DNA of 64,000 bases from an uncultured Holophagales bacterium (GCA_963842525.1 CAWJGT010000003.1:512001-576000), one strand, 5' to 3'. Positions 4,501-64,000 are shown, counted from the stretch's first letter. Translations and numbers: made by a program. The notes: generated by a model not told the origin, from the letters alone.

Positions 4501-4550
4501 CCGGGAAGTAAGCCAGCGGAGATAGCACATGGAGAAGGTCGTCGAAGGTT
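2515..4550 (+). repeat. Direct repeat copy 1 (~2.0 kb): Asub-T-C(terminal)[28 protein letters not shown]
   Basis: Near-identical to 13024-15063 (offset ~10.5 kb), with a more divergent patch at about 3190-3450. Confidence 0.93.
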
Positions 4551-4590
4551 AGAGACGAGCCCTCGTCAATACGAAACGGATGGATATCAG

Positions 4591-10500: not shown

Positions 10501-13500
10501 CAGCTCGACGAGGCGGCGCTTGCCCTCGCCTTGAAGGAGATTGTGCACCGTCACGAGGCCCTGCGCACCACGGTGTCCGACGCCTCGGGCGAGCCGCAGC
10601 AGGTGGTCGCCTCGGAGGAGGCCTTCTTCCTGCCTCGCATCGACCTCTCGGGTCTTTCCCGCGAGACGCGGCAGCGAGAAGAGAAGCGGTTGATCGAGCA
10701 GGATGCATTGCGATCTTTCGATCTCGCCCGGGGGCCCCTCTTCCGGCCGATGCTGATGAAGCTCGCAGCCGAAGAGCACCTGATGACGGCGACCATGCAC
10801 CACATCGTCAGCGATGGCTGGTCCATGGAGGTGCTCGTCAACGAGACCATCGCCTTCTACCAGGCCTACAGCGCAGGCCTACCGTCACACCTGCCCGAGC
10901 TCCCTGTCCAGTACGCGGACTTCTCCGTATGGCAGCGGGAGTGGCTCGCTGGAGCGGTATTGGAGTCGGAGGTGGACCACTGGAGACAGCGCCTGGAGGG
11001 AGCACCCGCAGTGCTGGAGCTACCGACGGACCGGCCGCGGCCAGCAGAGTGGAGCGGTCGCGGGGCGCAAGCGCTTCTGGTGCTGCCTCCATCGCTCTCG
11101 GGAGCGCTCCGCAGCCTTGCCCGCCGGCAGGCCGTCACTCCATTCATGCTCTTGCTGGCCTGCTTCCAGGGCCTGCTCCACCGGCATTCCCGCCACACCG
11201 ATGTATGTATCGGCACGCCGATCGCCGGACGTAACCGCCTGGAGATCGAGGGGGTGATCGGATTTTTTGTCAACACTCTGGTAATGCGCGTTCAGCTCGC
11301 GGGCGACCCTGAGCTGGCGGAGGTCCTGCGACGGGTGCGCGAATCGGCGCTCGATGCCTACGCTCATCAAGACCTCCCCTTCGAGAGACTGGTCGAAGAG
11401 CTCAAACCGGAGCGGAGCCTCGCCCATTCGCCGCTGTTCCAGGTGATGTTCGCCCTCCAGCCCCCGCCTCGCGGGAAACGTCTCGTACCCGGTCTCTCTG
11501 CCGCTCCGGTTCGGGTCGAGAGCGTGGGGGCCAAGTTCGATCTCAGCCTTCTGATGATCGATAGCGGGGAGGGCTTGGCCGGCGGGCTCACCTATGCCAC
11601 GGACCTCTTCGATGAGACGACGGTCAAGCGTCTGCTGGCACGCTTCGAGACGCTGCTCACGGTACTCGCGGCCGATCCCGGGCAGCGCCTCTCCGAGGCC
11701 GCGTTGATTCCCGCGGCCGAGCGGCAGCAGGTGATCGCCGAGTGGAACGACAGTCAGGCCGAGTGGCCGACCCCGCAGGGGCTTTGCCTGCACGAGCTGT
11801 TCGAACGCCAGGTGGAGAGGGGCCCCGATTCGGTGGCCGTGGTCTTCAACAAAGAGCAGCTCACCTACCGGCAGCTCGACCACAGGGCGAGCCAACTCGC
11901 CCACCACCTCCGCAGGCTAGGCGTGGGGACCGAAGCACGGGTGGCCGTCTGCGTCGAGCGCTCGTGCGAAATGGCCGTGGGGCTGCTGGGTGCGCTCAAG
12001 GCCGGAGCGGCTTATGTGCCCCTGGATCCGGACTATCCCCGGGAGCGTCTGGCCTTCATGATCGAAGATTCGGGAGCCTTGGTCCTGCTGACGCAGGAGT
12101 CCCTCGCCTATGCTGTTTCGCCGGGCGGCACCCGGACGGTCTGCCTGGACGGCGAATGGTCCACCATCGCTGAAGAGCCTGTGGACAGGCCTGTCGGCGG
12201 CGCCACGCCGGAGAGCTTGGCGTACGTGATGTACACCTCTGGATCCACCGGCAGGCCCAAGGCGGTGATGGCGCACCACGCCGGCATTGTCAACCGCCTG
12301 CTCTGGGCACAGCTCACATATCCCGTCACTGAGGCGGATCGGGTGTTTCAGATCGCATCGTTCTCTTTCGATTTCTCGGTCTGGGAGTTCTTCGCGCCTC
12401 TCGCGGCAGGGGCCTGCCTGGTCCTCGCTCTTCCTGGCGGGCATCGAGACAGCACCTATCTGGTGAGGAAGATCGCCGAGGAGGCCGTTTCGATCGTCCA
12501 TTTCACGCCCTCCATGCTGCAGGTGTTCCTGCTGGAGGAGGGGATCGAGAAGTGCCGCAGCCTGCGCCACGTCCTGTCTGGCGGCGAGGCCCTCTCGCGG
12601 GAGGTCGAAGCCCTCGTCTTCTCTCGCACGACGGCGGTCTTGCGCAACCAGTACGGTCCGACCGAGGCATCGATCGATGTGACGGCACGGCTCTGCCGGC
12701 CGGACGATCGCCCGCACCGGACCGTCTCCATTGGCCGGCCGATCGCCAATGGCGAGGTCTATGTTTTGGATGGACACCTGCAGCCCGCGCCGGTCGGGGT
12801 GCGTGGAGAGCTGTATCTGGGTGGTGTGGGTGTGGCGCGGGGATACCTCGGACGGCCTGGCCTCACGGCGGAGAGATTCTCTCCCAACCCGTTCTGTGCG
12901 CGGGCGGGTGGCCGGCTCTACCGGACCGGGGATCTGGCGCGCTGGCTGGCAGACGGCGAGATCGAGTTCCTGGGGCGGCTCGATGACCAGATCAAGATTC
13001 GGGGGCTTCGCATCGAGCTGGGAGAGATCGAGGCTACTCTTGCCGGGCATCCGGGAGTGCGCGAATCCGTGGTTCTGGCTCGGGAAGACGTTCCCGGCGA
13101 AACGCGCCTCGCCGCCTATCTAGTGGCGCGGCCGGAAACGCTTCTCACAGCGGCGGAGCTTCGCGACCACCTGCGGCGGAGTCTGCCAGAGCACATGATC
13201 CCTGCGGCGTTCGTGGTGCTCGATGCGCTGCCGCGCACCTCGAATGGGAAGCTCGACCGCAAGGCCCTGCCGGCGCCGGGCGAGCCCCGGGCCGGAGAGC
13301 GTGGGGCCTCTTCACCACGCACGATCACCGAAGAGATCCTGGCGGGCCTCTGGCAGGAGATCCTGCGGCTCGACCGCACTCTCGGCATCCACGAGAGCTT
13401 CTTTGAGCTCGGAGGACACTCCCTGCTGGCCACCCGGATGCTCTCGCGGGTCCGGGGGGTGTTCGAGGTCGACCTCCCCCTGCGCACCGTATTCGAGTCG

Positions 13501-16300: not shown

Positions 16301-19300
16301 GCACGTCCGGGTCTTGGAGCTGGAGATCCTGAGCGCGGCCGAGAGACGCCGCCTGCTCGAGGACCTGAGCGGCCCGCAGGCCGATTGCGGGCCGCTCGCG
16401 ACTCTCACCGCGCTGTTCGAGGAGCAGGTACGCCGGGCTCCCGGTGAGACCGCCGTCGTCTTCCGGGATCTGCGCCTGACCTACGGCGAGCTCGCCGCGC
16501 AGGCCCGCCGGCTCGCCCGGAAGCTGCGCGCCATGGGCGTGGGTCCCGAGGTGCGGGTGGCCCTCTGTGTAGAGAGATCCCTGGACATGATCGTCGGCAT
16601 CCTCGGCATCCTCGAGGCCGGGGGGGCCTGGGTCCCGCTCGATCCCGCCTACCCCGCGGACCGGTTGGCGTTCATGCTGGAGGACGCCCGGGCCTCGGTG
16701 GTGCTGACCCAGGAGCGGCTGCTCGCGGAGCTCTCCCTGCCGGCTGTGAAGGTTCTTTGCCTGGACCGTGACTGGCAGCCCGTCGCCCAGGAGAGCCCGG
16801 AGCCTCGCTCCGGCGGCGCGGGACCTGACAACCTGGCCTATGTGATCTACACCTCCGGCTCGACGGGGAGGCCGAAGGGGGTGATGGTCTCCCACCGGGC
16901 CATCGTCAACCGCCTGCTCTGGATGCAGCGGGAGCTGCCCCTGACAAAAGAGGATCGCGTCCTCCAGAAGACCCCCTACAGCTTCGATGCGTCTATCTGG
17001 GAGATCTTGCTGCCGTTGCTGACGGGAGCCCGCCTCGTGATCGCCGAGCCCGGAGGGCACAAGGACTGCTCCTATCTCCTCGCCGCCGTGGCCGCGCAGG
17101 GCGTGACAATCCTGCAGCTCGTGCCTTCGCTGTTCTCGGTGTTCCTGGCGGAAGAGGGATTGCGCGAGCGTGGGCGCAGCTTGCGGCGGGTCTTCTGTGG
17201 CGGCGAGGCCCTGCCCGCCGAGGCTGTGGAACGTTCCCTCACCCTGCTGGAGGCCGAGCTCTGCAACCTCTACGGCCCGACCGAGGCGGCGATCGATGCG
17301 ACCTTCCTGTCCTGCGGGTCGGAGCGGCGCGAGGGCATCGTGCCGATCGGCCGTCCGCTCGACAACGTCCGGGTCCGCCTCCTGGACGCCAGCCAGCGGC
17401 TCGTGCCCGCGGGTATGCCGGGAGAAGCTCTGCATTGGCGGCACCGGCCTGGCCCGCGGCTATCTCTTCCGGGCGGACCTGACCGCCGAGCGCTTCGTGC
17501 CCGACCCCTGGGCGCCGGGCGAGCGCCTCTATAGGACCGGCGACCTGGCGCGCCTGGGCCCGGACGGCACCCTCGAGTTCCTGGGGCGGATCGACGGCCA
17601 GGTCAAGATCCGGGGCTTCCGGATCGAGCTGGGAGAGATCGAGGCCGTCCTGTCGCGGCACCCGGCGGTGCGGGAGGTTGTGGTCGTGGCGCGGGAGGAC
17701 GCGCCCGGGGACCGGCGCCTGGTGGCCTACGTGGCCTGCCGCCGCGAGGACCAGGCCGGCGCCGGTGAGCTCCGCGCATTCCTGACCCTGACGCTGCCCG
17801 AGTTCATGGTGCCGGCCGCGTTCGTCCTGCTCCCGTCCCTGCCCCGGCTGCCCAACGGCAAGCTGGACCGCCGCGGCCTGCCGGAGCCCGAGCGCGCCCC
17901 GGCCGGCCGGAAAGGGGCCGTGGCGGTTCCCCGCACTCCGGTCGAGGAGCTCATCGCAGGGCTCTGGGCTGAGCTGCTCGGCATGGACGGGATCGGGGTC
18001 GACGACAACTTCTTCGAGCTGGGAGGGCACTCCCTGATGGCGACCCAGCTCACCTCGCGCATCCGCGAGCTGTTCCGGGTCGAGCTCAAGGTGCGGGTCG
18101 TGTTCGAGGCCCCCACCATGGCCGGTCTCGCGGAGAGGATCGCGGCCGCGCAGCGGGACGAGAGAGAGACGCCGGAGGCGCCCTCGATCCAGCCAGTCCC
18201 GCGCGAGGGCTCTCTGCCCCTGTCCTTCGCACAACAACGGCTCTGGGTGCTCGACCAGATCGCTCCGGGCTCGGCAGCCTACAACCTGCCGGTCGCGGTG
18301 CGCCTGGAAGGGCTCCTGAATGCGGCGGCTCTCGCGGCGAGCCTCGCGGAGATCGTGCGACGCCACGAGGCTCTGCGCACCGTCTTTGCCGCTGCGGGAG
18401 GAGAGCCGGTCCAGGTCGTGCGGCCGGCCGATGCGTTCTTCCTGCCCGCGGTCGATCTGTCCGGGCTCGGAGAGCGGGCGGAGGAGGAAGCGCGGAGCTT
18501 GGCACTCGCGGATGCGCACCGGCCGTTCGACCTGGAGCAGGGCCCCCTCTTCCGCCCCACCCTGTTGCACCTCGCTCCCCAGACCCACGTCGCCCTGGCG
18601 ACGATGCACCACACCGTGAGCGACGGCTGGTCGCGAGGAGTGCTGATCCAGGAGCTGACGTCCCTCTACGCCGCCTTCGGCCGGGGTGAAGCTCCATCGT
18701 TACCCGCGCTGCCGGTGCAATACGGCGACTACGCCGTCTGGCAGCGCCGCTGGCTGTCGGGCGATGTCCTGGCCGCGGAGATCGACTACTGGCGGCGCCA
18801 TCTGGCCGGGATGCCGGCCCGGCTCGAGCTGCCGACCGACCACCCGCGGCCGGCTCTGCGGACCGACGCGGGCTCCACGCGGTCGCTGGTGCTCGGGGCG
18901 GAGCTCACGGCCAGCTTGCACGGCCTCGCCCGCGGCGAGGGCGCGACTCTCTTCATGGTCCTCCTGGCAGGGTTCCAGACGCTCCTCTCGCGCTATGCGG
19001 GACAGGAAGACCTCGCCGTGGGCACACCGATCGCCGGCCGCAACCGGATGGAGATCGAGCACCTGATCGGCTTCTTCGTCAACACCCTGGTTCTGCGCGC
19101 GCAGATCCCCGGCTCGTCGAGCCTCCGCGACCTCCTGCGCCGGACCCGGGCGGAGACCCTGGAGGCCTACGCCCATCAGGACGTGCCGTTCGAGAAGCTG
19201 GTGGAGGAGCTGGCGCCGGAGCGCAGCCTCTCCTACTCGCCGCTCTTCCAGGTGCTGTTCTCGCTCCAGAACGCCCCGGTCAGGGCCCTCGAGCTGCCCG

Positions 19301-28300: not shown

Positions 28301-31300
28301 GCCCGACCGAGAACACCACCTTCACCTGCTGTTACCCCATGCAGGGGCCGGAGCGCATCGGCTCCTCCGTGCCGCTCGGGTGGCCGATCGCCAACACCCA
28401 GGTCCAGATGCTGGACCCTCATGGCCAGCACGTCCCGATCGGGGTCGCGGGCGAGCTCTGTACCGGCGGCGCCGGGCTGGCGCGCGGCTACCTGGGCCGG
28501 CCCGATCTCACTGCCGAGCGGTTCATCCCGAACCCCTTTGGAGAGCAGGGAGGACGCCTGTACAGGACCGGTGACCGCGCGCGCTCCCTGCCGGGCGGCG
28601 AGATCGAGCTCCTGGGGCGCATCGACCAGCAGGTCAAGATCCGCGGCTTCCGCATCGAGCCGGGAGAGATCGAGTCCCTCCTGGCGGAGCACCCGGAAGT
28701 GAGGGCGGCGGCGGTCGTCGTCCGGGAGGATCTGCCCGGCGGGAGAGGGCTCGTGGCCTATGTGGCTCCCGCAGCAGGCGCCGCTCCCGAGGCCGCGGCT
28801 CTGCGTTCCTTCCTGCGGACCCGGCTGCCGGAGCACATGGTGCCGACCCACGTGGCCTTCCTGGAGGGCCTGCCGTTGACCCCCAACGGCAAGGTGGACC
28901 GCCGGGCGCTGGCCCAGGCGGCTCCGGCGCCGGGCCTCGGCTCCGAGGCTCCCGCCGTGGCCCCACGGAGTCCCATCGAAGAGCTGCTGGCGGGGATCTT
29001 CGCCGAGTTGCTCCGCGCGGAGCGGGTGGATGTGGAGGAGAGCTTCTTCGACCTGGGCGGGCATTCGCTGCTCGCCACGCAGCTCGTCTCCCGCGTGAGG
29101 GACGTCCTGGGCGTGGAGATCGCGGTCCGGGGCGTCTTCGAGACGCCGACCGTGACGGGTCTCGCCGCGGCGGTGGAGCGGGCGCGGCTGGCGGGGGAGG
29201 AGACACGGATGCCGCCGATCACGCCGGCTCCGCGGGACGCGGACCTGCCGCTCTCCTTCGCCCAGCAGAGGCTCTGGTTCCTCGACCGGATGGCGCCGGG
29301 CAGCGCGGCCTACAACGTCCCGACGGCTGTCCGTCTGGAAGGGCCGCTCGACACCGCGGCCCTGGCGGCGAGCCTTGCCGAGGTGGTGCGGCGGCACGAG
29401 GCGCTGCGGACCACGTTCGCCGCGGTGGCCGGCGAGGCCGTCCAGGTGGTGGCCGCCGGCGCCGCGGTCCGCCTGGCCGTGGTCGACCTCTCCGGATCGC
29501 CGGGAGCGAAGGAGGACGAGGTCCGGCGCCTGGCCCGCGAGGAGGCGCGGCGGCCCTTCGACCTCTCCCGCGGCCCCCTGCTGCGGGCGACCCTGGTGAC
29601 GCTCGGCCGCGAGGAGCACGTTCTCCTCCTGACCCTGCACCACATCGCCGGCGACGCCTGGTCGATGGAGGTGCTGGTCCGGGAGCTGACCACGCTCTAT
29701 GCGGCGTTCTCCCAGGGCAGGCCCTCGCCCCTGCCGGAAGCTCGCGGTCCAGTACGCCGACTTCGCGTGCTGGCAGCGGCGCTGGCTCACGGGGGAGGTG
29801 CTGGCCGCCGAGATCAGCTACTGGCGGGAGGGGCTACGGGGGCTGCCGCCGAGCCTGGACCTGCCCGCGGACAGGCCGCGGCCGGTTGTCCAGAGCTTCG
29901 CGGGAGCGGGCTGCCCGTTCCGCCTGCCGGAGGAGGTGGTGGAGGGGCTCCGGGTGCTCGCCCGCAGCCGGGGAGTGACGCCGTTCATGGCGCTGCTCGC
30001 CGGGTTCCAGACCCTGCTCGCGCGCTGCTCCGGCCAGGACGACCTCGCCGTGGGCACGCCGATCGCCGGCCGCAACCACGTCCAGACCGAGGGGCTGATC
30101 GGCTTCTTCGCCAACACCCTGGTGCTGCGCACCGGCTTCGGCGGCAGACCGACCACCGTCGACCTCCTGCGCCAGGTGCGCGCGACCACGCTCTCGGCCT
30201 ACGACCATCAGGACCTGCCGTTCGAAAAGCTGGTCGAGGCCCTGAACCCGGCACGCGACCTCGAGCCGCTCCCCGCTGTTCCAGGTGATGCTCGCGCTGC
30301 AGAACGTCCCGGCCGCGGGGGCGGCTCTCCCCGGCTTCCGGCTGAGCCCGCTCAGCGTCCGCCGCGAGATGGCGAAGTTCAACCTGACCCTGGAGATGGC
30401 GGAAGGCGGCCACGGCATGGCCGGCACGATCGAGTACAACCGCGACCTGTTCAACCGCTCGACGGTCCTGCGCCTGCTGGCCCATTTCGAAAGGCTCCTG
30501 GAGGGGATGGCGGCCGTGCCGGAGATGGCGGTCGGCGAGCTGCCCCTGCTCAGCGAACGCGAGCAGGCCCAGCTCCTGGAATGGAATGACACGGCGCGGA
30601 CGGCGCGGGAGGTCCCGCCGGATGCGACGCTCCACGGCCTCTTCGCCGAGCAGGCGAGGCGTTCTCCGTCCGCCCTGGCGGTCGTCTTCGGCCGCGAGGT
30701 GATGACCTACGGCGAGCTCGACGACCGCGCCAACCGCGTAGCCCGTCATCTCGGCGAGCTTGGGGTCGGACCCGAAGCGCGGGTGGGCATCGCGATGGAA
30801 CGCTCGCTCGAGCTCGTCGTGGCTCTGCTCGCCACTCTGAAGGCCGGAGCCGCGTACGTGCCTCTCGATCTCTCCTATCCCGCGGAGCGGCTGGCCGCCA
30901 TGGCCGAGGATGCCTTCGGCGGGCTCGAGCGGCCTGTGCTGCTGGTGCAGTCCGCGCCGGCCGCCCTGCCGGCGGCGCTCCGCGCGCAAGGTGTGCAGGT
31001 GGTCTCCATCGACGACATCCCCGAGCCCGCCGGCGGCAGCAGGGATGACGATCCGGCCGGGGCCGCCAGTCCGGACGGCCTGGCCTACGTGATCTTCACC
31101 TCCGGGACGACCGGCCGGCCCAAGGGTGCGATGAACACCCACCGAGCCATCGGCAACCGCCTGCTGTGGATGCAGGATTCCTACAACCTCGGAGCCGGCG
31201 ACCGCATCCTCCAGAAGACGCCCTTCAGCTTCGACGTCTCGGTGTGGGAATTCTTCTGGCCCCTGCTCACCGGCGCCCGCCTGGTGCTCGCGCTGCCGGG

Positions 31301-34300
31301 CGGCCATCACGACCCGTCCTACCTGGCGCGCCTGATCGCCGAGGAGGGGGTGACGACGGTGCACTTCGTGCCCTCGATGCTCCGGCTCTTCCTGGAGGAG
31401 CCCGCCGTCGCATCCCTCGCCAGCCTGCGCCGGGTGATCGCGAGCGGCGAGGCCCTGCCGGCCGACCTCGCGGCCCGGTTCCATGCCCGCATGCCGGAAA
31501 AAACCGAGCTGCACAACCTCTATGGTCCGACGGAGGCGGCAGTCGATGTCACCTCCTGGCCGTGCGGGCACGGCGATGCGCGGACCTCCATCCCGATCGG
31601 CCGGCCCGTCGCGAACACCCGCATCCACCTCCTCGACCGCGGCTGCCTGCCGGTGCCGGCCGGAGTTGCCGGGGAAGCTCTATATCGCCGGCGTCCAGGT
31701 CGGACGCGGGTACCTCAACCGCCCGGGGCTGACTGCGGAGCGGTTCGTCCCCGATCCCTGGCCGGGCACGTCGCCGGGAAGCCGCCTCTATCGGACGGGC
31801 GACCTGGCTCGCCGGCTGTCCGACGGCACCCTGGAATACCTGGGGCGGATCGACCATCAGGTCAAGGTCCGCGGCCACCGGATCGAGCCGGCGGAGGTCG
31901 AGGCGGCCCTGCTGCGGCATCCCGGCCTTCGGGAGGCCGCGGTCGTGGCGCGCACCCGGGGTGGTGAGACCTCTCTGGCCGCCTATGTGGTCGCCGCGGA
32001 CGGGCCGGTGCCGGACGCCCTGGCGGTGCGGGCCTTCCTGCGCGAGCTGCTGCCGGAGCCGATGGTTCCGGCCTGGATCGTCCCCCTGCCGGAGCTGCCG
32101 CTCACCGTCAACGGCAAGCTGGACCGGCGGGCCTTGCCGGAGCCGGAGGCCGGGGTCCGCGAGACGGCCCGGACCGTGCCCGCGAGCGAGCTCGAGCGGA
32201 CCATCGCCGCGATCTGGTGCGAGGTGCTGGGCCTCGACCGGGTGGGGGTCGGGGAGAGCTTCTTCGATCTGGGCGGCCACTCGCTGCGGCTGGTCCAGGT
32301 GCAGGCGCGGCTGCGGCAGGCCCTCGGACGCGAGCTCTCGGTGGTCGAGCTGTTCCAGTACCCGACCGTCGCCGCCCTCGCCCGTTTCCTCGACGACGGC
32401 CGGCGGGAGGAGGGCCGCCCGGCGCCGCTCGCGCGGACCGCTCCGGCATCCCTGGTGGCCGAGGGCCGGTCCCGGGACATCGCGGTCATCGGCATGGCCG
32501 GCCGCTTTCCCGGCGCGCGCGATGTCCAGGAGCTGTGGGACAACCTGCGCCAGGGCGTCGATTCGCTCACCTTCTTCTCCGACGAGGAGCTCCTGGCCGC
32601 CGGCATTCCTCCGGAGCGGCTCGCTTCGCCCGACTACGTCAAGGCGGGCCGGGTGCTCGAGGGCATCGACCTCTTCGACGCCGGGTTCTTCGGCTTCAGC
32701 CCGCGCGAAGCCGAGCTCTTGGACCCGCAGCAGCGGCTGTTCCTGGAGTGCGCATGGCAGGCGCTCGAGAGCGCCGGCCACAGCCCGCGGGGCTGCCGGG
32801 GCCGGGTCGGCGTCTATGCCGGCGCGCGGATGAGCAGCTACGCCTTCAACATCTTCTCGCGCCCGGACATCCTGGAGTCGCTGGGCGACATCGCCGTGCA
32901 GGCGGCCGTCGACAAGGACTACCTGGCCACCCGGGTCTCCTACGAGCTCGACCTCAAGGGGCCGAGCCTCACCGTGCAGACCGCCTGCTCGACCTCCCTG
33001 GTGGCGGTGCACCTCGCCTCCCAGTCCCTCGGCTCCGGCGAGTGTGACATGGCCCTCGCCGGCGGCGTCGCGGTGCAGACGCAGCAGCGCACCGGGTACA
33101 TGTACCAGCCGGGGAGCATCCTGTCCCGCGACGGCCGCTGCCGCACCTTCGACGCCCAGGCGAGCGGCACGCTCAGCGGGGACGGAGTCGGTGTGGTCGT
33201 CCTCAAGCGGCTGCAGGACGCCCTGCGCGACGGCGACACCATCCATGCCGTGATCAAGGGATCAGCCATCAACAACGATGGCGCTCTCAAGGTGGGCTAC
33301 ACCGCCCCGAGCGTCGAGGGGCAGGCGCAGGTCATCGCGGCGGCCCAGGAGGCGGCCGGCGTCTCCGCGGACAGCATCACCTATGTCGAGGCCCACGGCA
33401 CGGCCACGCCCCTGGGGGACCCGATCGAGATCGCCGCCCTGACCCAGGCCTTCCGCAAAGGGACCGACCGGACCGGCTTCTGCGCCGTGGGATCGGTCAA
33501 GACCAACCTCGGCCATCTGGATGCCGCGGCCGGGGTCACCGGCCTCATCAAGACCGCTCTTGCGCTCCGGCACCGCCAGATTCCGCCCAGCCTCCACTTC
33601 GCGGCGCCCAATCCGAAGATCGACTTCGCGGCAAGCCCGTTCTACGTCAACACGAAGCTCGCGGAGTGGCGGAGCGAAGAGGGGCCGCGCCGGGCCGGCG
33701 TGAGCTCCTTCGGGATGGGCGGTACGAACGCGCACGCCGTTCTCGAGGAGGCTCCCGCGGTCGAGCCCTCCGGGCCCTCGCGCGCTTGGCAGCTCCTCCA
33801 GCTCTCGGCCAGGACGCCCGAGGCCCTCGAGGAGGCCACCGCGAACCTGGCCCGCTTCCTCGCCCACAATCCCGGCGTCAGCCTGCCCGATGTCGCCCAC
33901 ACGCTCCAGGTGGGGCGGGTGGCCTTCGAGCACCGGCGCATGCTGGTCTGCCGCAACGTCGAAGAAGCCGTCGCCGGCCTGGAAGGAGGCCTCCCGGGAC
34001 GCCTCCTCTCGCGGCACACCGAGCCCGCCCACCGCCCGGTCGCCTTCCTGTTCCCCGGGCAGGGCGCGCAGCACGTGGACATGCTGCGCGGGCTTTACGA
34101 GACCGAGCCGGTGTTCCGGCGTGAGCTGGATGCCTGTGCCGAGCGGCTCCTGCCGCGGCTGGGACGTGACCTGCGCGATCTCCTGCATCCCGCGGCGGAG
34201 CGGCGCGAAGAGGCCAGGTGTGACCTGCGCCGGACCCGCTTCGCCCAGCCGGCCCTGTTCGCTGTCGAGCTCGCCCTCGCCCGCCTCTGGATCTCCTGGG

Positions 34301-37300
34301 GGATCCGGCCCTGGGCCCTGATCGGCCACAGCGTCGGCGAATATGTCGCCGCCTGCCTGGCCGGCGTCCTCTCCCTCGACGACGCCCTGCTGCTGGTCGC
34401 CGCGCGCGGCGAGCTGATGCAGGGGCTGCCGGCCGGGGCGATGCTCTCCGTCGACCTCGCGGAGAGCGAGCTCCTGCCGCTGCTCGGCCCCGACCTCGCC
34501 CTGGCCGCCGTCAATGGGCCATCCCTGTGCGTGGCGTCCGGTCCCGAGGAGACGATCGACGTGCTCGAAGCCCGCCTCGCGGAGCGCGACGTCCCCTGCC
34601 GCCGGCTCCACACCTCCCATGCCTTCCACTCCGGGATGATGGACCCGGTCCTCGCGCCCTTCGAGGAGACCTTGCGGCAGGTAGCTCTCAAGCCGCCGGC
34701 GATCCCCTACCTGTCCAACCTGACGGGGACCTGGATCACGGCGGCCGAGGCCACCGATCCCGCCTACTGGGTGAGACACCTGCGAGAGACCGTCCGCTTC
34801 GGAGAGGGGATCGCCCATCTGCTCGCCGAGCGGAGCGCCGTGCTGCTCGAGGTCGGCCCCGGACGGACGCTCGGCAGCCTGGCCCGGCGGCAGGCCGAGC
34901 CCGGCACCGGCCGCACCGTCGTCGCCTCCGCCCGTCATCCCCAGGACGGCGAGCACGACGCGGCCGTGCTGCTCGAGGCCGTCGGCCGCCTCTGGCTCGC
35001 CGGTCTCGAGATCGACTGGAGCGCCTTCCGCGCCGGCGAGCGCCGGCTGCGGCTCCCGCTACCCACCTACCCCTTCCAGCGTCGTCGCTTCTGGATCGAT
35101 CCGGCCCGGCCGGGGAGCGCTCCGAGCACGGCGAGCCGGTCCGCTGCCGAATGGTTCTACGAGCCGTCCTGGAAGGCTGCGGCCAGCGCCGTCGCGGACG
35201 CCTTCGTGCGCTCCCACAACGAGAGCCACCAGGTGCCCTGGCTGCGGGCGAGCCTCGAGGAGTGGCTCTCCGGCGAGGAGGGAGCCGGGGTGCTGCGCCG
35301 TCTCCTCACCCTGGATCCAGCGGCGCGCGTGATCGTCCCGGCCGTTCGGCCGGAGGACAGGACGGCTCTCGCCGTCGAGGCCGGCAGCGATTCACCGGTC
35401 CGCCGGGAGGAGGCGCTCCTGCCCGGCCATGCGCGCCCGGACCTCGCGACCCCCTACCAGGCTCCGGAGGGCGAGGTGGAGAAGCAGCTCGCCGGGATCT
35501 GGCAGGAGCTCCTGGGTGTCGAGCGCATAGGCGCCTGCGATGACTTCTTCGAGCTGGGCGGCCATTCGCTCCTCGCCATCCGCCTGCTGTCCCGCATCCG
35601 GCAGACGCTGAGCGCGGAGGTCTCCCTGGACGCCATTTTCGAGGCGGCCACGATCCGGGAGCTGGCCACCCTGGTGGCGGCCGCGGGGAGCGACGATCGA
35701 AAGCTACGGATGCCGGCCATCCTGGCGGTCCCGCGCGACGGGGCCCTTCCCCTCTCCTTCTCCCAGCAGCGGCTGTGGTTCCTCGACCAGCTCGATCCCG
35801 AGAGCTGGGCCTACAACATTCCCCTGGCGGTGGGGGTCCGCGGAGCCCTCGACGCAGCGGCTATGGAGAAGGCCCTGCGCGAGATCGTGCGCCGGCACGA
35901 GGCCCTGCGGACGACGTTCTGGACCGTCGAAGGCGAGCCGGTGCAGAGGATCGCGCCCGAGCTGTCGCTCCGCCTGCCGGTCGTCGACCTGTCGGGTCTG
36001 CCCGCGCCGGCGCGGAATACCGAGTCCCGGGTCCTGGTGCGCCGAGAGGCGCGTCAGCCTTTCGACCTTGCCGCAGGGCCGCTGCTGCGCTCGACCCTGG
36101 TCGAGCTCGGCCGGGAGGAGCGCCTCGCGTTCTTGACGATGCACCACATCGTCGGAGACGCCTGGTCGATCGGCCTGCTCGTGCGCGAGCTGGGGATCCT
36201 GTACGAAGCCTTCTCGCAGGGCCGTCCCTCGCCCCTTCCGGAAGCTCGCGGTCCAGTACGCCGACTTCGCCTCCTGGCAACGGCAGTGGCTCTCCGGCGC
36301 GGTGCTCGAGGAGGAGCTGGCCTACTGGAGGGAGCACCTGGACGGCTCGGCTCCGGCGCTGGACCTGCCCTTCGACCGGCCGCGGCCGGCGGTCCCGACC
36401 TTCGTGGGGGACAGCCGCCCGTTCTATCTGCCGGAGGAGCTGGCCGGCCGCATCCGCGCCTTCTCCCAGGAGCAAGGGGCGACGCTCTTCATGACCCTGC
36501 TGGCGGCCTTCCAGGTGCTCCTCTCCCGCACCTGCGGGCAGACCGACATCTCGGTCGGGACTCCTGTCGCGGGCCGCAATCATCTGCAGACCGAGGACCT
36601 GATCGGGTTCTTCGTCAATACCCTGGTGCTGCGGACCGACCTCGCCGGCGATCCCACCCTGCGGGAGCTGCTGGGCCGGGTGCGGAGCGTGGCCCTGGGG
36701 GCCTACTCCCATCAGGAGCTGCCGTTCGAGCTGCTGGTCGAGGAGCTGCAGCCGGTGCGCAGCCTCAATCAATCACCCCTGTTCCAGGTGATGCTCGTCC
36801 TGCAGAACGCGCCGGCCGCGACGCTCCAGGCCCGGAGCATCACCCTGGAATCGCTGCCGCTGGAGACGGGGACGGCCCGGTTCGACCTCACGATCGCGGT
36901 GGTCGAGACGCGCGGCGGCGTCTTCGGGTCCCTGGAGCACAACACCGACCTGTTCGACGGCACCACGGCGCAGCGCATGGTGCAGCACTTCGAGGCTCGC
37001 GTTGCGGGGCCTGGTCGAAGGCCCGGAACGCCGGCTCTCGGAGCTGCCGCTGCTGACGGAAGGTGAGCGGGCGCAACTGCTCGCGGAGTGGAACGACACC
37101 GGCGCCGAGCCGGCCTGGGAGGGTCCCGTCCACGAGCTCTTCGCACGATGCGCCGAGCGGTATCCGACCACCGAAGCCCTGATCTTCGAGGGGACGACGC
37201 TGACGTACGGCGAGCTGAGCCGAAGGGCCGGGCGGTTGGCCGCCTGGCTGCGCGTTCAAGGCGCGGGCCTCGAATCGCGGGTGGGTGTGTGCGTCGAGCC

Positions 37301-40300
37301 GTCGCCCGAGATGATCGTGAGCCTGCTGGGCATCCTCAAGGCAGGAGCCTCCTATGTGCCGCTCGACCCGGCCTATCCGCGGGAGCGCCTGGTGAGGATG
37401 CTTGAGGACTCCGGCGTCGAGCTGCTGCTGACCCAGGAGCGCTTCCGGTCCACCTTGCCCGGCAAGGCGGCCCTGCTGTGCCTGGATTCGGAGTGGGGCG
37501 TGGTGGAGGCGATGGGGCCTGAGATGGCCCAGACGGAGCAGGTGACGGCGAAGAGCGCGGCCTACATGATCTACACCTCCGGCTCCACGGGCACGCCCAA
37601 GGGTGTAGTGGCGGTGCACGGCGGCCTGGCCAGCTTCACGCGCTCCATGGTGGAGGCCCTGGCGCTCGCGCCCGGAGACCGGGTGCTCCAGTTCGCCTCG
37701 CTGAGCTTCGACGCTTCGGCGGTGCAGATCTTCCCGACCCTGGCGAGCGGAGCGGCCCTGGTGCTGCACCGCAACCCGCGTGCCCTCTCCACGCGCGAGC
37801 TCCTGGAGCTCTGCTCGGCGACGAGGGTGACGGTGCTCGACCTGCCGGCCGCCCTGTGGCGCCAGTGGGTCGGCGAGGGGATGGAGAGCGAGATCGCGGC
37901 TCCGATCCGCATGTACATGACGGGAGGCGAGGCGGTGCCGGCGCCGGTGCTGCGGGCCTGGGCGAGCCGGATGGAGCCAGCGGTGGGTTTCCTCAGCTCC
38001 TATGGTCCGACCGAGGCGACCGTCACTTCCACGGTCTTCCAGACGACGAGCGGCGAGGTGGACCGGCTCGCCCTCCCGGAGGTGCCGCTCGGCCGGCCGC
38101 TGCCCGGGACCGGGCTCTATCTGTTGGACGGCGGCCTCCAGCCTGTCCCGGTCGGCGTCCTCGGCGAGGTCTTTCTCGCCGGGGCAGGGGTGACGAGGGG
38201 ATACCTCCATCATCCGGGCCTGACGGCAGAGCGCTACCTGCCGGATCCATGGTCCGGGGAGCCCGGAGCGCGCGTGTACCGCGCGGGAGACCTGGCGCGC
38301 CGCCTGCCGGACGGGAGCCTTCAGTTCGCCGGGCGCCGCGATCAGCAGGTCAAGTTGCGCGGGTACCGGGTGGAGCTGGGAGAGATCGAGGCCTCCCTCG
38401 GGGCCTGCCCTGGGGTCCGGGAGAAGGTGGTGGTAGTGCGCGGAGAGGCGGCAGGAGACAGGCGCCTGGTGGCCTATGTGGTGCCGGAGCGACCGGACGA
38501 GCTGTCGGCGGAGGATCTGCTCGCCATGCTGCGGACGATGCTGCCGGCCCATATGGTCCCATCGTCCCTCGTCCTGCTCCCCCAGCTACCGCTGACGCCG
38601 AGCGGCAAGATCGACCGCAAGGCGCTGCCCGCTTTCGACGCCTCTTCGCTGCCACAGCAGCGGCAGGAGATCGGCCCGGTAAGGACGAAGCAGGAGATCG
38701 TCCCGGCACAGACGCAACTGGAGCTCGATCTCGTCCATCTCTGGGAAGAGCTGCTGGATGTGCGGCCGATCGGGATCCATGACAACTTCTTCGACCTTGG
38801 CGGTCACTCGCTCCTCACCGTGCGTCTCGTGGCCCAGATCGGGAAGAAGCTCGGCCGGCGCGTCCCCCTGGCGGTGCTCTTCGAAGGACCGACGATCAGC
38901 CACCTCGCGCGGCGGCTTGCGGCCGAGGAGGTGGCCCCGGCCTGGTCGCCGCTGGTGGCGATCCAGCCCGCGCACTCATTCTCGAAGCCGCCCCTGTTCT
39001 TCGTTCATCCCCTCGGCGGTGAGGTCCTGGCCTATTACCACCTGGCCCGGCACCTGGGCACGGACCAGCCGTTCTACGCCCTCCAGGCCGCGACGCTGCA
39101 CCACCAGGGAGGCGAGCCGCACCCCTCCATCGAGGAGATGGCGGCTCGCTATCTCGCGGAGGTGCGGAAGGTCCAGCCGCAGGGCTCCTACATGCTGGGA
39201 GGCTCCTCGTTCGGTGGTCTGGTCGCCTTCGAGATGGCCCAGCAGCTCCGCGGGCAAGGAGAGAAGGTTGCCCTTCTCGCCATGCTCGATACCCCGGTTC
39301 CGGTGAACGAGCCCGAGCTCTTCGACCTCGACTCCGCAGCCCTCATCCCCGCGCTGCTGCGCCAGCAGGCTCGGGGCCACGGCCGAGAGCTCCGCCTGAC
39401 CCCCAACGAGCTGCGAGGCCTTCTCCTGGAAGAGCAGGTCGATCTGGCTCTGGGGAGGGCGAAGGAAGCTGGAATCCTTGGCGGGGAGATCGACGCGGCT
39501 CTGCTGCACCGCTTCATCCGGGGCTACGAGCCGAGGATGCGGGCGATGCAACGCTACCGGGCCCGCCCCTATCCGGGCTCGATCGACCTGTTCCGTCCCC
39601 ATGAGTTGGACCCCGAGGAGCTGAGACACGCTTCCGCCGAGCGGCGGAAGCGGCTCGCGGACCCGGCCCTCGGCTGGGGTGCGTTCGCCGCCGGGGGGGT
39701 GGAGGTCTGCTACGTCCCCGGCCAGCACGAGACCATGACCGCCGAGCCTCACGTTCGCGAGCTCGCCAAGGCCCTGAAATCCCGCATCGGGCAGGTTGCC
39801 GAGGCCGAGGCCGCAGCCCCGAGGCTCTCTTTGACAGAGCAGAGGCGCAGGGGATCGACCCGCAGCTCGAGTCCTGAGGGGCTTAACAGCATCAAGAAGA
39901 TCGGAATGATCAACTGCTTTTTTGGCGCATGGCCGGGGTGGGCTGATCTGTTCATCGAAAGCTGTCGGTTCAATCCTACAGTCGATTTCTTTCTGGTCAG
40001 CGATTGTGCAGCCCCCCGGTGGGGAATTCCCCCCAACGTCAAGATCATCGACCTCGATCTGCAACAGTTCAGCAGGCGCGCGTCGGAGAGGCTGGGCCTG
40101 GAGATCCATCTCTCCAAGCCTTATAAGTTGAACGATTTCAAGCCATTCTGGGGAGTCATCTTCGAAGAGTACATCAAGGATTACGACTTCTGGGGATTCT
40201 GCGACCTGGACATCATCTTCGGAGACATTCGTGCATTCATGACCGACGAGCTCCTGGACAAGTACGACGTCATCGCGAGCCGGCGGGAGTTCATCACCGG

Positions 40301-40886
40301 ACACTTCCTGCTCTTCAGGAATACCGATGAGATCAGGCATCTGTATAAGAGGAGCTCGGACTGGCAGTGGGTCGCCACGAGCGAAGAGTTCTTGGTCTTT
40401 GAGGAATGCGGAATAGGACTTCATCCCAGACTCCTCCAAGGGGCCAGCTTTTCTGACCTGGCACCCGAGGGAGTCGTCGACAGCATGATGCACGTTCTCG
40501 CGCGTTCTCCTGAAATCCGTGTCCACCGGGAAACGATCTGCGGTGAACAGTTGTTCATATTAATCGGTGGCAATGCGGACAAAGCCCTGAAGATCCGTTG
40601 GGAGAGTGGAAAGATCTTTGATCTCATGGCCGATAAGGAGCTCATATACTTCCACTTCCTGTACCTGAAGTCTGAGGGCAGGCTCTTCCTTCCGCAATGG
40701 GAGACTATGCCTCCTGTCTTTCTGCTGACCCGGCGGGGGTTTTTTTGGGTAGGTCAACAAAAGCTGGGGCAGCGCCTCGAAAGCTCTTTCGATCGTGCTC
40801 TCTACTTTCTCCGGCGGTCTCTCCCGCTTGCGCCGAAACTTCTCAAGCGGCGGTTCTACAGGATCCTTGGAGGATTGAAGAAATGA
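15042..40886 (+). CDS. Hybrid NRPS-PKS megasynthetase (~8,600 aa if six single-base insertions are removed): I/C*-A(Gln)-T-C-A(Cys-clade)-T-E-C(DCL)-A(Ser)-T-C-A(Val)-T-C-A(Ser)-T-KS-AT-ACP-C-A(unknown)-T-TE-DUF6625-like
   Basis: ORFs 15042, 17170, 29699, 30285, 31483, 36302 and 37002 each advance the frame by +1. The breaks fall inside domains and mostly inside conserved motifs ([17 protein letters not shown] twice, RDLSRSPLFQ, GELYI). RBS GGAG precedes ATG 15042. Codes: DAWQFGLIDK, DLYDFSLVWK, DVWHISLVDK, DALWLGGTFK, DVWHISLVDK, DAVDMGSVTK. Confidence 0.88.
21440..22790 (+). other. Epimerization (E) domain followed by a DCL-type C domain
   Basis: Upstream T has GGDSI. Motifs [49 protein letters not shown]. 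The downstream C has HHILLDGWS and FENYP. Confidence 0.92.
32475..35680 (+). other. Embedded type I PKS module KS-AT(malonyl)-ACP with no intact reductive domain
   Basis: [21 protein letters not shown] (catalytic Cys), EAHGTAT, KTNLGHL; AT GHSVGE and HAFH; carrier GGHSLL. Confidence 0.93.
38990..39790 (+). other. Type I thioesterase domain
   Basis: [16 protein letters not shown] nucleophile elbow and C-terminal PGQHETM, directly after the last T domain. Confidence 0.92.
39891..40886 (+). CDS. DUF6625-like, DxD-motif glycosyltransferase-like protein or domain. In frame with the NRPS TE as assembled, but possibly a separate gene.
   Basis: [16 protein letters not shown]...[10 protein letters not shown]...[35 protein letters not shown] resembles, from recall, DUF6625 proteins of polysaccharide loci. 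The region is visibly more AT-rich than the NRPS. The family call needs HMM confirmation. Confidence 0.7.
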
Positions 40887-43297
40887 GAGATTTGCTGCAA
40901 GACGCCCGCTACGGATTGCGCAGGCTGTGGCAAGCTCCGGGGTTTACCGGGGCCGTGATGCTGGTGCTGGCTCTCGGCATTGGCGCCACGACGGCGATCT
41001 TCAGCGTGCTCGATGCCGCCCTGCTGCGGCCGCTGCCCTACCCCGAGCCCGAGCGACTGGTCGCGGTCTACGACCTGCAAGGGCAGGAGGAGGCGCCGGC
41101 CTCGTCCGCCGAATACCTCGACTGGAAGCGGGACACGGAGGTCTTCAGCGACTTCGGCGCGTACTTCATGATAGCGCTTGCGCTGACCGGTGAGGGTGAG
41201 CCGGAGATGGTCCGGGTCGTGCGGATGTCGGCCAGCGTGCCGCGGATGCTGGGCGCCCTGCCGCGTGTCGGGCGCGCGTTTGCGCCGGGCGAGGATGCGC
41301 TGGAGGCCGAGCGCGTCGTGATGTTGAGCGAAGCGCTGTGGCGGCGCCGCTTCGACGGCGACCAGAAGATCGTCGGCCGTGCCGTCACACTGGGAGATGA
41401 ACCGTACACGGTGATCGGCATCATCCCCCCAGGCCGGCGTTCGACCGTTCCGGCCGACCTGGCGGCGGCGCAGGAGATCGATGTATGGATTCCCCTGCGG
41501 CTCGAGCCGGAACGCATGCCGCGTAACCTGCACTTCATCAACGTGGTCGGACGGCTGCGCCCCGGGCTCGCCCTCGCGCAAGCCGAGGAGCGCATTGCGG
41601 CGTTGGCTCACCGGCTCCGGGAGAGCAAGGTGACGGACCATGGTATCCGCCTCGTCCGGCTGGAACGTATCGTGATCGGCGACGCGCGGCCGCTCCTCGC
41701 CGCCCTGGCTGGCGCGGTGGGCATGGTGCTCCTCATTGCCTGTACAAACGTGGCGAACCTGCTGCTGGCGCGCTCGGCGGTACGGCGGCGCGAGATCGCC
41801 ATCCGCGCGGCGCTCGGCGCGGCGCGCGGCCGCCTCGTACGGCAGCTCATGGTCGAGAGCCTTCTCCTGGCGTTGCTCGGCGGCGGTGCCAGCGTGCTCG
41901 TCGCATGGGGCGGCGTGGCCGCCCTCCGCAGGCTTGGCCCCGCCGGTATGCCGCGGCTCGCCGAGGCCGCGGTGGATGCGCGCATGCTGGGTTTCGCGCT
42001 GCTCCTTGCGCTGGTCACCGGCCTGCTCTTCGGCCTGCTCCCCGCGTGGCGCGCCTCGCGCGCCGACCTCGCCGAGGTGATGAAGACCGGCGCGCCGGGC
42101 GCCAGCGGAGGCCTCGCTCGCAGCCGTCTGCGCGGCGCGCTCATCGTGGCCGAGGTGGCGCTCTCGTTCGCTTTGCTCATCGGCGCCGGCCTGATGATCC
42201 GCAGCTTCGGCCGGCTGCTCGCGGTCGACAAGGGCTTCAACGCTGAGCGCGTGCTCAGCACCTCGGTCTCCTTGCCGTTCACCCGCTATCCCGAGCCGTA
42301 CCAGCAGGCCGCGTTCTTCCGCGAGCTCTGCGAGCGCGTAGCGGCGCTTCCGGGAGTCCAGTCTGCGGCCTTTGCCAGCAGCGTGCCCCTGGCGGGAGAT
42401 GTCAGCGGCGTAGTCCTCATCGAGGGCCGCACCTTTCCGCCGGACGCGCGACCGGTCGCCCAGAAGCGGATCGCCTCGCCGGGCTACTTCGCAGCGCTGC
42501 GCACACCGGTCCTCTCCGGGCGCGTCTTCGAGGACAAGGACGCCGCCGGCGCGCCGCCGGTGGTCGTCATCAACCAGGCCTTCGCGCGACGCTACTTCCC
42601 CGGCGAGAGCCCGCTCGGCAAGCGGGTCGATTTCGCGTGGGAGACCACCGGGATGGGGATGCAGGAGATCGTCGGCGTGGTCGCGGATATGCGGGAGCTG
42701 GCGCTCCACGAGCCGGCCGAGCCGACGATCTACATCCCGCAGGCGCAACGCCCGTCGAGTTGGGGCTATCTCATTGTGCGTACGACCCGAGATCCCATGG
42801 GCATGGTCTCCGCACTGCGCCGGGCGGTGACCTCGCTCGATCGCAACCTGCCGATCGCCCAGGTGCGCACGTTGGAGGAGCTGGTGGCCCAGGGGCTCGC
42901 GGAGCGCCGGCTCGCGATGTCCCTTTTCGGCGTCTTTTCCGCATTGTCGCTGGTGCTCGCCGCTTTAGGTCTTTATGCCGTCATCAGCTACATGGTGATG
43001 CAACGGCGGCAGGAGATTGGCATCCGGATGGCGCTCGGCGCGCGCACCGAGCACGTTCTGCGCGGGGTGCTGGGCCAGGGGCTGGCGCTGATCGCGGCCG
43101 GTGCGGCCCTCGGCGCGCTCGCCGCCCTATGGCTCGGGCGATTCCTCTCTGGGCTCATCTTCGGCGTCGGCACCACCGACCCCGCCACCTTCGCGGGTGT
43201 AGCGCTCCTGCTCGTGGCGACCGCTCTCCTGGCGAGCCTGGTGCCCGCGCTGCGCGCCGCCCGCCTCGATCCGGCGAGCGTGTTGCGTAGCGAGTAG
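40883..43297 (+). CDS. ADOP-family (acidobacterial duplicated orphan permease; MacB/FtsX-like) ABC transporter permease, 804 aa
   Basis: [61 protein letters not shown], and a second FtsX repeat [16 protein letters not shown] 40883 overlaps the upstream TGA (ATGA) and has GGAGG upstream. Confidence 0.92.
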
Positions 43298-43330: not shown

Positions 43331-43658
43331 TGACTCGCGGTCCCGGCGATTGGGGCCGCGGTCCGCGCGACCGGGACCGCGAAACCGCACTGTGGACCTG
43401 CGGTCCCTGCCAAGCGGACCTCGGGTCCTACCAGATGACCTGATGCCCTGCGTTGCGGGCCGCGGTCCCTCTGACAGGGACCCCCGGTCCGCACAGGAGG
43501 ACCGCGGTCCCTCTCACACGGACCGGAAGTCCAGGGCCGCGTTTTTCAAAACCGCTGATGGGGACCGCGGCCCGCGCGACTGGGGCCTTCGGTCCGCGCC
43601 GGGGGCTCGCGAGCCCACAGGCTCCGGCATCGCTGGCTTCGACACGGCGCGCGGTCCG
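43331..43658. repeat. Intergenic tandem array, ~21-bp period, degenerate palindromic core GGGACCGCGGTCCC, about 16 positions
   Basis: Cores start near 43331, 43352, 43373, 43394, 43415, 43436, 43456, 43477, 43498, 43519, 43561, 43582, 43603 and 43645, with ~7-nt variable linkers. The array lies between two convergent stop codons. Confidence 0.85.
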
Positions 43659-43682
43659 GTCTCTGGAGCGGCGGCTCTGTTT

Positions 43683-64000
<20,318 letters not shown>

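Follow-up and report, generated by a model that had tools for sequence, protein, structure and literature searches.

The locus described here raises the question of whether a nonribosomal peptide synthetase (NRPS) can continue, beyond its releasing thioesterase (TE), into a glycosyltransferase-like domain on the same polypeptide, and what such a domain would do there. The window, i.e., the whole stretch of DNA that was analysed, comprises 64,000 nucleotides (nt) of an uncultured Holophagales bacterium (GCA_963842525.1, CAWJGT010000003.1:512001-576000), and all positions are counted from its first letter. On the plus strand, one open reading frame (ORF, 37002-40886, 1294 codons) encodes adenylation (A), thiolation (T) and TE domains, a linker and a domain of the family DUF6625, with no stop codon between them. 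Judged from its predicted structure, this last domain has the GT-A fold and a DxD...H signature and lies outside the characterised CAZy families, and comparison with sequences from other strains makes it very probable that the frame is truly continuous. We give about an even chance to the reading that the fusion is a thioesterase-tethered GT-A tailoring domain, which would glycosylate a peptide-polyketide at or after its release, beside a translationally coupled exporter.

The initial annotation of this DNA had described a TE module reading through into a more AT-rich, DUF6625-like domain, and the open frame, the Pfam matches and the base composition confirm this description. The guanine-plus-cytosine (GC) content ranges from 0.66 to 0.73 before ~39800 and from 0.51 to 0.57 within 39800-40900; for 39891-40886 it is 53.6%, compared with 70.3% for the window. 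The coordinates given previously are also correct: PYKLNDFKP at 40119-40145, DFWGFCDLD at 40185-40211, GAGGCTC at 39821-39827, the TGA that results from removal of one G at 39832-39834, GAGGGG at 39876-39881, ATC-AAG-AAG from 39891 and ATG at 39906. The TE motifs are readable in the translation (GGSSFGG, of the GxSxG type, AMLD, and PGQH near the end), with the Ser-Asp-His set assigned by motif position, and the domain is 51-58% identical to four TE homologues. A linker is present as claimed, but by the domain limits used here it has 32 residues rather than about 35. Five homologous TEs align as far as window positions ~39779-39827 and extend beyond their last helix by 5-36 disordered residues; the linker looks like a natural TE tail of this kind, its length falling within that range, and the GC content of the region (68%, 39790-39890) is host-like. 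The plot of GC at third codon positions favours phase 2 on both sides of the linker, with phases 1 and 2 tied over 39810-39884. At the distal end, the stop codon of the ORF (TGA, 40884-40886) overlaps the ATG of a permease gene at 40883 (ATGA), as had been noted. A scan of 39400-41100 returned one weak promoter-like site (9/12) and three terminator-like sites, compared with 0.3 and 1.6 expected.

Membership in DUF6625 (Pfam PF20330), proposed at the outset, is well supported. Within the ORF the match covers residues 969-1221 (197.6 bits, cut-off 27), and 39891-40886 alone reaches 202 bits over profile positions 1-241 of 267 (E 2.1e-59). This is the only DUF6625 copy in the genome (9.95 Mb, 34 contigs). 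For modelling, an alignment (A1, 85 sequences) was built from the window's domain and 84 of the 150 best representatives of the family, picked for near-full-length matches. The resulting AlphaFold2 model (predicted local distance difference test, pLDDT, 95.1; predicted template modelling score, pTM, 0.90) displays an alpha/beta/alpha Rossmann-like GT-A domain, in line with the GT-A-like fold that had been anticipated. In a Foldseek search of the PDB, the GT6 ABO transferases rank first (E ~7e-6, TM-score 0.31-0.44), with 170 matches at E <= 0.001. VIA-align, which is independent of Foldseek, gives the same picture: all 50 matches listed are GT-A-fold nucleotide-sugar enzymes (Z 9.0-12.0), namely 48 sugar or sugar-phosphate transferases and two IspD cytidylyltransferases, and none of these 50 has the GT-B fold (GT1 type), although a family missing from such a list may still be related. 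The best of them is GlyE (GT8; Z 12.0, root-mean-square deviation 4.1 over 210 residues), followed by PBCV-1 A64R (11.9), BoGT6a (11.5), UGGT (11.3), LgtC (10.9) and CpsY (10.4).

The A1 profile, when compared with all PDB chain sequences, retrieves no glycosyltransferase (GT) at E <= 1 and no solved structure at E <= 0.1, the sole match at E <= 1 being an unrelated ribosomal protein. Since sequence identity is 6-16% and no solved structure is matched by the profile, the likeness to GT6 and GT8 is one of fold and not of family membership. The structural relatives are mainly retaining enzymes, i.e., GT8 (GlyE 5gvv, LgtC 1g9r, glycogenin), GT6 (ABO GTA/GTB, BoGT6a), GT24 UGGT and GT34 XXT1, and the Stealth/GlcNAc-1-phosphotransferases (CpsY 8j2n) are also among them. 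Like these enzymes, the window's domain consists of one Rossmann-like GT-A unit, with a DxD and a later His, and it aligns with them at Z 10-12 over 190-215 residues; it differs from them in sequence, and a fold likeness of this kind is compatible with retaining or inverting chemistry and with transfer of a sugar or a sugar phosphate. In a protein atlas, the features of the domain resemble those of DUF6492 (0.90) and of Nucleotid_trans and Glyco_transf_8 (both 0.88), values that serve as leads only.

Six residues, D105, D107, G111, N144, E172 and H255 (domain numbering), are invariant in 85/85 A1 sequences, that of the window included. Both aspartates of the DxD that the initial annotation had pointed out in DFWGFCDLD are among them. 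Glu172 is a candidate catalytic or acceptor-side residue, and His255 is a candidate for the third metal ligand of a DxD...H set, by analogy with known GT-A enzymes. The two C-terminal helices of the model have the highest hydrophobic moments in the domain (0.62 and 0.54) and net charges of +2 and +6, which suggests peripheral membrane binding. The domain may be a glycosyltransferase acting on the NRPS product.

All of this presupposes that the reading frame is real. The apparent read-through could instead be an assembly artefact, in which the true sequence at 39821 is GAGCTC, the TE ends at APSSL-TGA (39832-39834) and DUF6625 is a coupled cistron starting at TTG 39831. The caveat attached to GAGGCTC at 39821-39827 in the initial annotation is well founded, given that this heptamer has the same form as a confirmed +1 frameshift. 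By tblastn with a paralogous NRPS module as probe, and with the sites fixed from the DNA and the paralogue peptides, four such frameshifts were located (17404-17428, 30262-30274, 31669-31676 and 36992-36998). Each consists of one inserted base at a GAGCTC-like site, in order GA[A]GCTC (in GELCIGG), CTC[G]AGC, GA[A]GCTC (in GELYIAG) and GAG[G]CTC (after HFE); for the last one, the frame switch appears at 37008-37027 in the tblastn alignment, and paralogue peptides beginning HFETLL agree with the window's reading there. The four look like a systematic assembly error, for which a basecalling error tied to a methylation motif is our guess. If they are indeed assembly errors, 15042-40886 would be one gene of ~8,600 codons. 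Genome-wide, GAAGCTC exhibits an excess of +1 codon-phase shifts (115 vs 41 for +2, n = 1389 usable sites), whereas control motifs are balanced (e.g., GACGCTC, 38 vs 37). Moreover, the TTGA overlap, preceded at 6 nt by GAGG, would serve as a conventional start for a coupled gene, and the family is nearly always standalone. On the other hand, GAGGCTC itself shows no genome-wide +1 excess (45 vs 39, n = 822 usable sites) and occurs in the window at chance frequency (35 copies vs 36 expected), and at least its copy at 39199, in GGSSFGG, is plainly correct. A start at TTG 39831 would also add 20 residues that are absent from every close homologue.

The junction is bridged by three of three contigs from three soil or rhizosphere metagenomes (three studies), all of which align with the window there at equal length and without gaps: X1 (635 nt, 39728-40362, 10 mismatches), X2 (184 nt aligned, 39750-39933, 7 mismatches) and X3 (394 nt, 39720-40113, 8 mismatches). 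Being 96-98% identical to the window, these contigs derive from other strains rather than from the assembly of the window itself. A spurious G in the window would give a 1-nt gap in all three. The lack of any indel over 39720-40113 indicates that the frame is probably real. Examined in this way, on contigs of other strains, the GAGCTC alternative at 39821 raised by the initial annotation is disfavoured relative to the fusion, and we consider an assembly artefact very improbable. Many of the metagenome records are 151 nt long, suggesting short-read data. A further run, X4, matches exactly in two pieces (39447-39637 and 40423-40573, 0 mismatches), with the junction outside both, and when protein fragments crossing the junction were sought (query 39720-40112; 72-230 residues long), 31 candidates emerged, none at E <= 1e-10. 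In its GT part, the X2 strain carries only frame-preserving indels: 2+1+3 nt are left out at 40573-40579, +1/-1 occurs at 40785/40791, and a stop-free 36 nt stands in place of 3 nt at 40866-40868, directly before the Shine-Dalgarno sequence of the permease. These frame-preserving changes would speak for selection on the GT part.

A separate observation concerns divergence along the same region, compared for runs X1 and X2 between 38904-39711 and 39712-40822. The X1 contig in the TE (39261-39622) differs from the window at 33/362 positions, and the junction and GT contigs differ at only 10/635 and 9/373. Compared with the TE, the transferase may be under stronger conservation or have been shared more recently; alternatively, another organism may be the source of the TE piece.

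The DUF6625 part bears the marks of a former separate gene. From its low GC content it was probably acquired, most plausibly by horizontal transfer. Its 11 nearest homologues, 45-66% identical, are without exception standalone proteins of 336-349 residues; in their alignment (A2), Met occupies the column of ATC 39891 in 7/11 and is residue 1 in six, which fits a separate gene that has lost its start. The domain resembles standalone DUF6625 proteins in its full-length match to the hidden Markov model, in its invariant residues, in size and in its C-terminal helices. It differs from them in being the C-terminal part of an NRPS (residues 964-1294), with Ile (ATC) replacing the initiator Met. In the closest genomic homologue, found in genome G031, the start is a TTG with GGAGA 6 nt upstream; in the window, GAGGGG stands 9 nt before ATC and is perhaps the remnant of a ribosome-binding site. 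A DNA search of 92 genomes of the bacterial family retrieved only TE paralogues 65-69% identical, hence no ancestral TE stop for comparison. ATG 39906 was considered as the native start and rejected, as it would remove strand beta-1 residues kept by every close homologue; the separate start that had been suggested at this codon is therefore unlikely.

These traces of an earlier start permit another reading, namely that the frame is continuous but the enzyme is mostly produced free from an internal start (TTG 39831 or, weakly, ATC 39891), the fusion being a tolerated by-product of recent insertion. Either codon is a possible internal start by sequence. Both are preceded by Shine-Dalgarno-like motifs at the spacings already given, all close homologues are separate proteins, and the low GC content suggests a recent arrival. 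Nevertheless, the ancestral start position is now ATC, a codon at which the bacteria tested initiate very poorly, and ATG 39906 removes part of strand beta-1. Furthermore, as the frame has no stop codon, any ribosome completing the TE must go on to translate the GT domain. We regard predominant production of the free enzyme as unlikely, though less so than an assembly artefact.

The fusion is exceptional within its family. Altogether, 3,689 representative clusters match DUF6625 at E <= 0.001, and the 150 best representatives were examined. The domain begins beyond residue 50 in only four of these: the window's protein, two GT2-DUF6625 proteins (P0030, P0086) and one LRR-DUF6625 protein (P0114), so that N-terminal fusions are tolerated. 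No other TE-DUF6625 protein is present among the 150, and in a protein search restricted to 581-2000 residues (database of 5.8 billion proteins) the window's own protein alone has this architecture. The earlier statement that no other such architecture was known is thus borne out in the databases searched. At the level of titles and abstracts, a literature search found neither an NRPS-GT fusion nor an acidobacterial NRPS glycosyltransferase. As far as searched, the TE-DUF6625 or NRPS-GT-A fusion is undescribed and absent from databases. DUF6625 is also rare in relatives, with 5/92 genomes of the bacterial family (E <= 1e-20) and 3/401 of the phylum (E <= 1e-50). Searches for related loci gave 19 in genome contigs (best 44% identity) and 80 kept of 86 in metagenome contigs (best full-length 38%), with no close relative in either set and hence no second view of the junction.

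The genomic setting bears on what the domain does. The closest genomic homologue belongs to another genus (G031, 60% identity) and is a separate gene among NRPS, NRPS-PKS (PKS, polyketide synthase) and ADOP permease genes. The 20-kb locus around it (L119, G031:C482, 1-20000) contains an NRPS ending in A-T-TE (14-5464), a 999-codon ORF without Pfam match, a gene for a Trp-halogenase/FAD-binding-like flavoprotein (8521-9981, minus strand), a divergent ADOP permease gene and an NRPS-PKS gene. Just downstream of the standalone DUF6625 gene lies a 660-residue, hydrophobic-reading protein without Pfam match (10635-12617, minus strand). The GC content of the DUF6625 gene is again lower than that of its surroundings (61% vs 69%). 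Such a setting is unusual for the family: among 99 loci (930 kb) from more distant relatives, an NRPS or ADOP match occurs in none.

The transferase could alternatively be a passenger that acts on an envelope glycan or lipid and has no role for the NRPS, its position and fusion being accidents of insertion. Family members adjoin polysaccharide genes in 2/5 loci sampled from these 99, as immediate neighbours (EpsG/GT1 in L015, GT2 in L012), and 2/150 representatives are fused to GT2. Amphipathic C-terminal helices, moreover, are typical of glycosyltransferases with membrane-bound acceptors. The third-closest genomic homologue (G037, 43% identity) lies outside any NRPS cluster. The claim that the family is usually found in capsule or exopolysaccharide loci finds support in these neighbours and GT2 fusions, but the word "usually" is only partly justified by them. 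Against a passenger role, the G031 homologue again has an NRPS/NRPS-PKS cluster around it and an ADOP permease gene as neighbour; the window's domain keeps its invariant residues, its frame is open across strains, and it is translationally locked between NRPS and exporter. Polysaccharide genes are also lacking among the ORFs scanned in the 64-kb window. We judge the passenger role to be improbable.

For the tethered tailoring domain, the following course of events can be proposed. A low-GC DUF6625 GT-A gene would have been inserted between the stop codon of the terminal NRPS module and the start of the ADOP permease gene; the disordered C-terminal tail of the TE would then have run in frame into the transferase, whose own start codon would have decayed to ATC, leaving a megasynthase that ends in TE-linker-GT. 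In operation, the TE would release the peptide-polyketide, and the tethered GT-A domain would bind a nucleoside diphosphate (NDP)-sugar through its DxD/His residues and a divalent metal and attach the sugar, or sugar phosphate, to the product through one of its hydroxyl or amine groups, upon release or shortly after it. The cationic amphipathic helices would keep the terminus of the megasynthase against the membrane's inner face, from where the translationally coupled permease would export the product. We infer production of the fusion polypeptide from sequence, and likewise infer the membrane association and the order of these steps. A bolder form of the proposal, which we consider possible but doubtful, is that of a working bifunctional TE-GT-A terminus, which would make this assembly line the first to contain a glycosyltransferase domain of its own. 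It would constitute a release-glycosylate-export relay, in which the helices pin a ~8,600-residue megasynthase beside a MacB-type exporter and the subclade of the window and G031 acts on small molecules rather than polysaccharides.

Several findings weigh against the tethered tailoring domain. The fusion is atypical, since in 146/150 best representatives the domain match starts within the first 46 residues. Four +1 frameshifts lie in the window's own NRPS domains (~17425, 30264, 31672 and 36995), and removal of one G at 39821-39827 suffices to produce a TE stop overlapping TTG 39831. The junction check rests on contigs of other strains rather than on the window's own reads, and as it covered length, gaps and mismatch counts, those strains may have a stop by substitution. 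The Shine-Dalgarno-like motifs before TTG 39831 and ATC 39891 mean that free GT could also be made. The G031 permease is only 32% identical to that of the window and ADOP genes are abundant in the bacterial family; the adjacency is consequently weaker evidence than the NRPS context and could be coincidence. Finally, a literature search found no paper on DUF6625 or PF20330, and so no family member with tested activity. Structure prediction is neutral here: an AlphaFold2 model of TE-linker-GT (631 residues; alignment A4, with five TE homologues only) has pLDDT 26-67 in the TE and 71-98 in the GT, and the predicted complex of the TE (268 residues) with the GT domain scored 0.00 in both runs, which is no evidence either way. 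Overall, the interpretation advanced in the initial annotation, a sugar-transferase-like enzyme modifying the product at release or before export, is partly supported.

Tailoring glycosyltransferases of nonribosomal peptides are known as separate enzymes. GtfA-E of the vancomycin-type glycopeptides, for instance, are separate GT-B (GT1) enzymes that decorate the released NRPS scaffold; the window likewise has a glycosyltransferase-type gene in an NRPS cluster, but its domain is GT-A by fold search, belongs to an uncharacterised family and is joined to the TE. In CurM of the curacin pathway, a sulfotransferase lies before the TE and works on the chain while this is still bound to the carrier. 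The window's domain is similarly placed in cis beside a TE, but follows it and is glycosyltransferase-like. In the oleandomycin producer, the GT1 enzymes OleI and OleD and the ABC-F/ABC exporter OleB provide self-protection by glycosylation followed by export; the genetic coupling of a glycosyltransferase to an exporter is similar, by analogy only. The novelty therefore lies in joining known kinds, i.e., tailoring domains in assembly lines and glycosyltransferases in NRPS clusters. If true, a GT-A domain joined to a releasing TE would be a new way to build glycosylation into an assembly line, and the TE-GT fusion a ready-made engineering part. DUF6625 gains a testable functional lead, which would become the first function for the family if the tailoring role holds, and the predicted product would be a hybrid peptide-polyketide bearing a sugar, made by a soil lineage that has received little study and is probably acidobacterial, to judge solely from the ADOP permease family. 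Annotation of the large gene clusters of this assembly should take account of its apparently systematic +1 errors at GAGCTC-like sites. The coordinates of the features are collected in the table.

Table. Features of the fused ORF, its junction and the adjoining permease gene (window positions; res, residues of the ORF unless stated otherwise).
Feature	Position	Strand	Basis or remark
End of condensation domain and C-A linker	37002..37139	+	continues ORF 31483-37056 across +1 frameshift GAG[G]CTC 36992-36998
Adenylation domain	37140..38609	+	Pfam AMP-binding PF00501, E 4e-80, res 47-402; AMP-binding_C PF13193, res 461-536
Thiolation (peptidyl carrier protein) domain	38730..38918	+	Pfam PP-binding PF00550, E 8.6e-15, res 577-639
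Type I thioesterase domain	38991..39794	+	Pfam Thioesterase PF00975, res 664-780, 93.7 bits vs cut-off 26.4
Linker, 32 residues, Ser/Arg/Ala/Glu-rich	39795..39890	+	own domain limits
GAGGCTC, suspected 1-nt insertion site	39821..39827	+	same form as frameshift 36992-36998
TTGA	39831..39834	+	in-frame TTG, possible internal start, GAGG 6 nt upstream; TGA ends TE if one upstream G is spurious
GAGGGG, Shine-Dalgarno-like hexamer	39876..39881	+	9 nt before ATC 39891
ATC (Ile964)	39891..39893	+	column of start codon in standalone homologues
DUF6625 domain, predicted GT-A fold, 331 residues	39891..40883	+	res 964-1294; Pfam and predicted structure
DxD motif, D105-L-D107	40203..40211	+	both Asp invariant 85/85; CDLD at 40200-40211
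Glu172 in FEEC	40404..40406	+	invariant in A1
His255	40653..40655	+	invariant in A1
Two C-terminal cationic amphipathic helices	40764..40880	+	domain res 292-310 and 314-330; AlphaFold2 model
GGAGGA, Shine-Dalgarno of permease, inside end of GT coding region	40869..40874	+	8 nt upstream of ATG
ADOP-family duplicated MacB/FtsX-type permease	40883..43297	+	TIGR03434, 927.5 bits vs 622.3, profile 1-803/803; MacB_PCD and FtsX domains

In the permease, the TIGR03434 match begins at residue 66 of the ORF 40697-43297, three residues past ATG 40883, and the DNA similarity to paralogous permease genes starts at window position 40869.

In its wider layout, the window consists of two convergent hybrid NRPS-PKS lines. 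The plus-strand line (1-40886) comprises many C-A-T modules (C, condensation) and a ketosynthase-acyltransferase-T (KS-AT-T) module, ends in TE-DUF6625 and is followed by the permease gene. The minus-strand line (43683-63998) is still open where the window ends; C, A, T, KS and AT domains are recognised in its final 3999 residues, together with a terminal NAD_binding_4 reductase, which implies reductive release and not release through a TE. Opposite this minus-strand NRPS runs a plus-strand ORF (43350-47795, 1481 codons) without Pfam match, in all likelihood a shadow frame caused by the high GC content. In another genome of the same bacterial family (L124, G016:C3), an NRPS TE stop is followed within 150 nt, as judged by eye, by what resembles the N-terminus of an ADOP-type permease, and TE-then-ADOP may be a recurrent arrangement.

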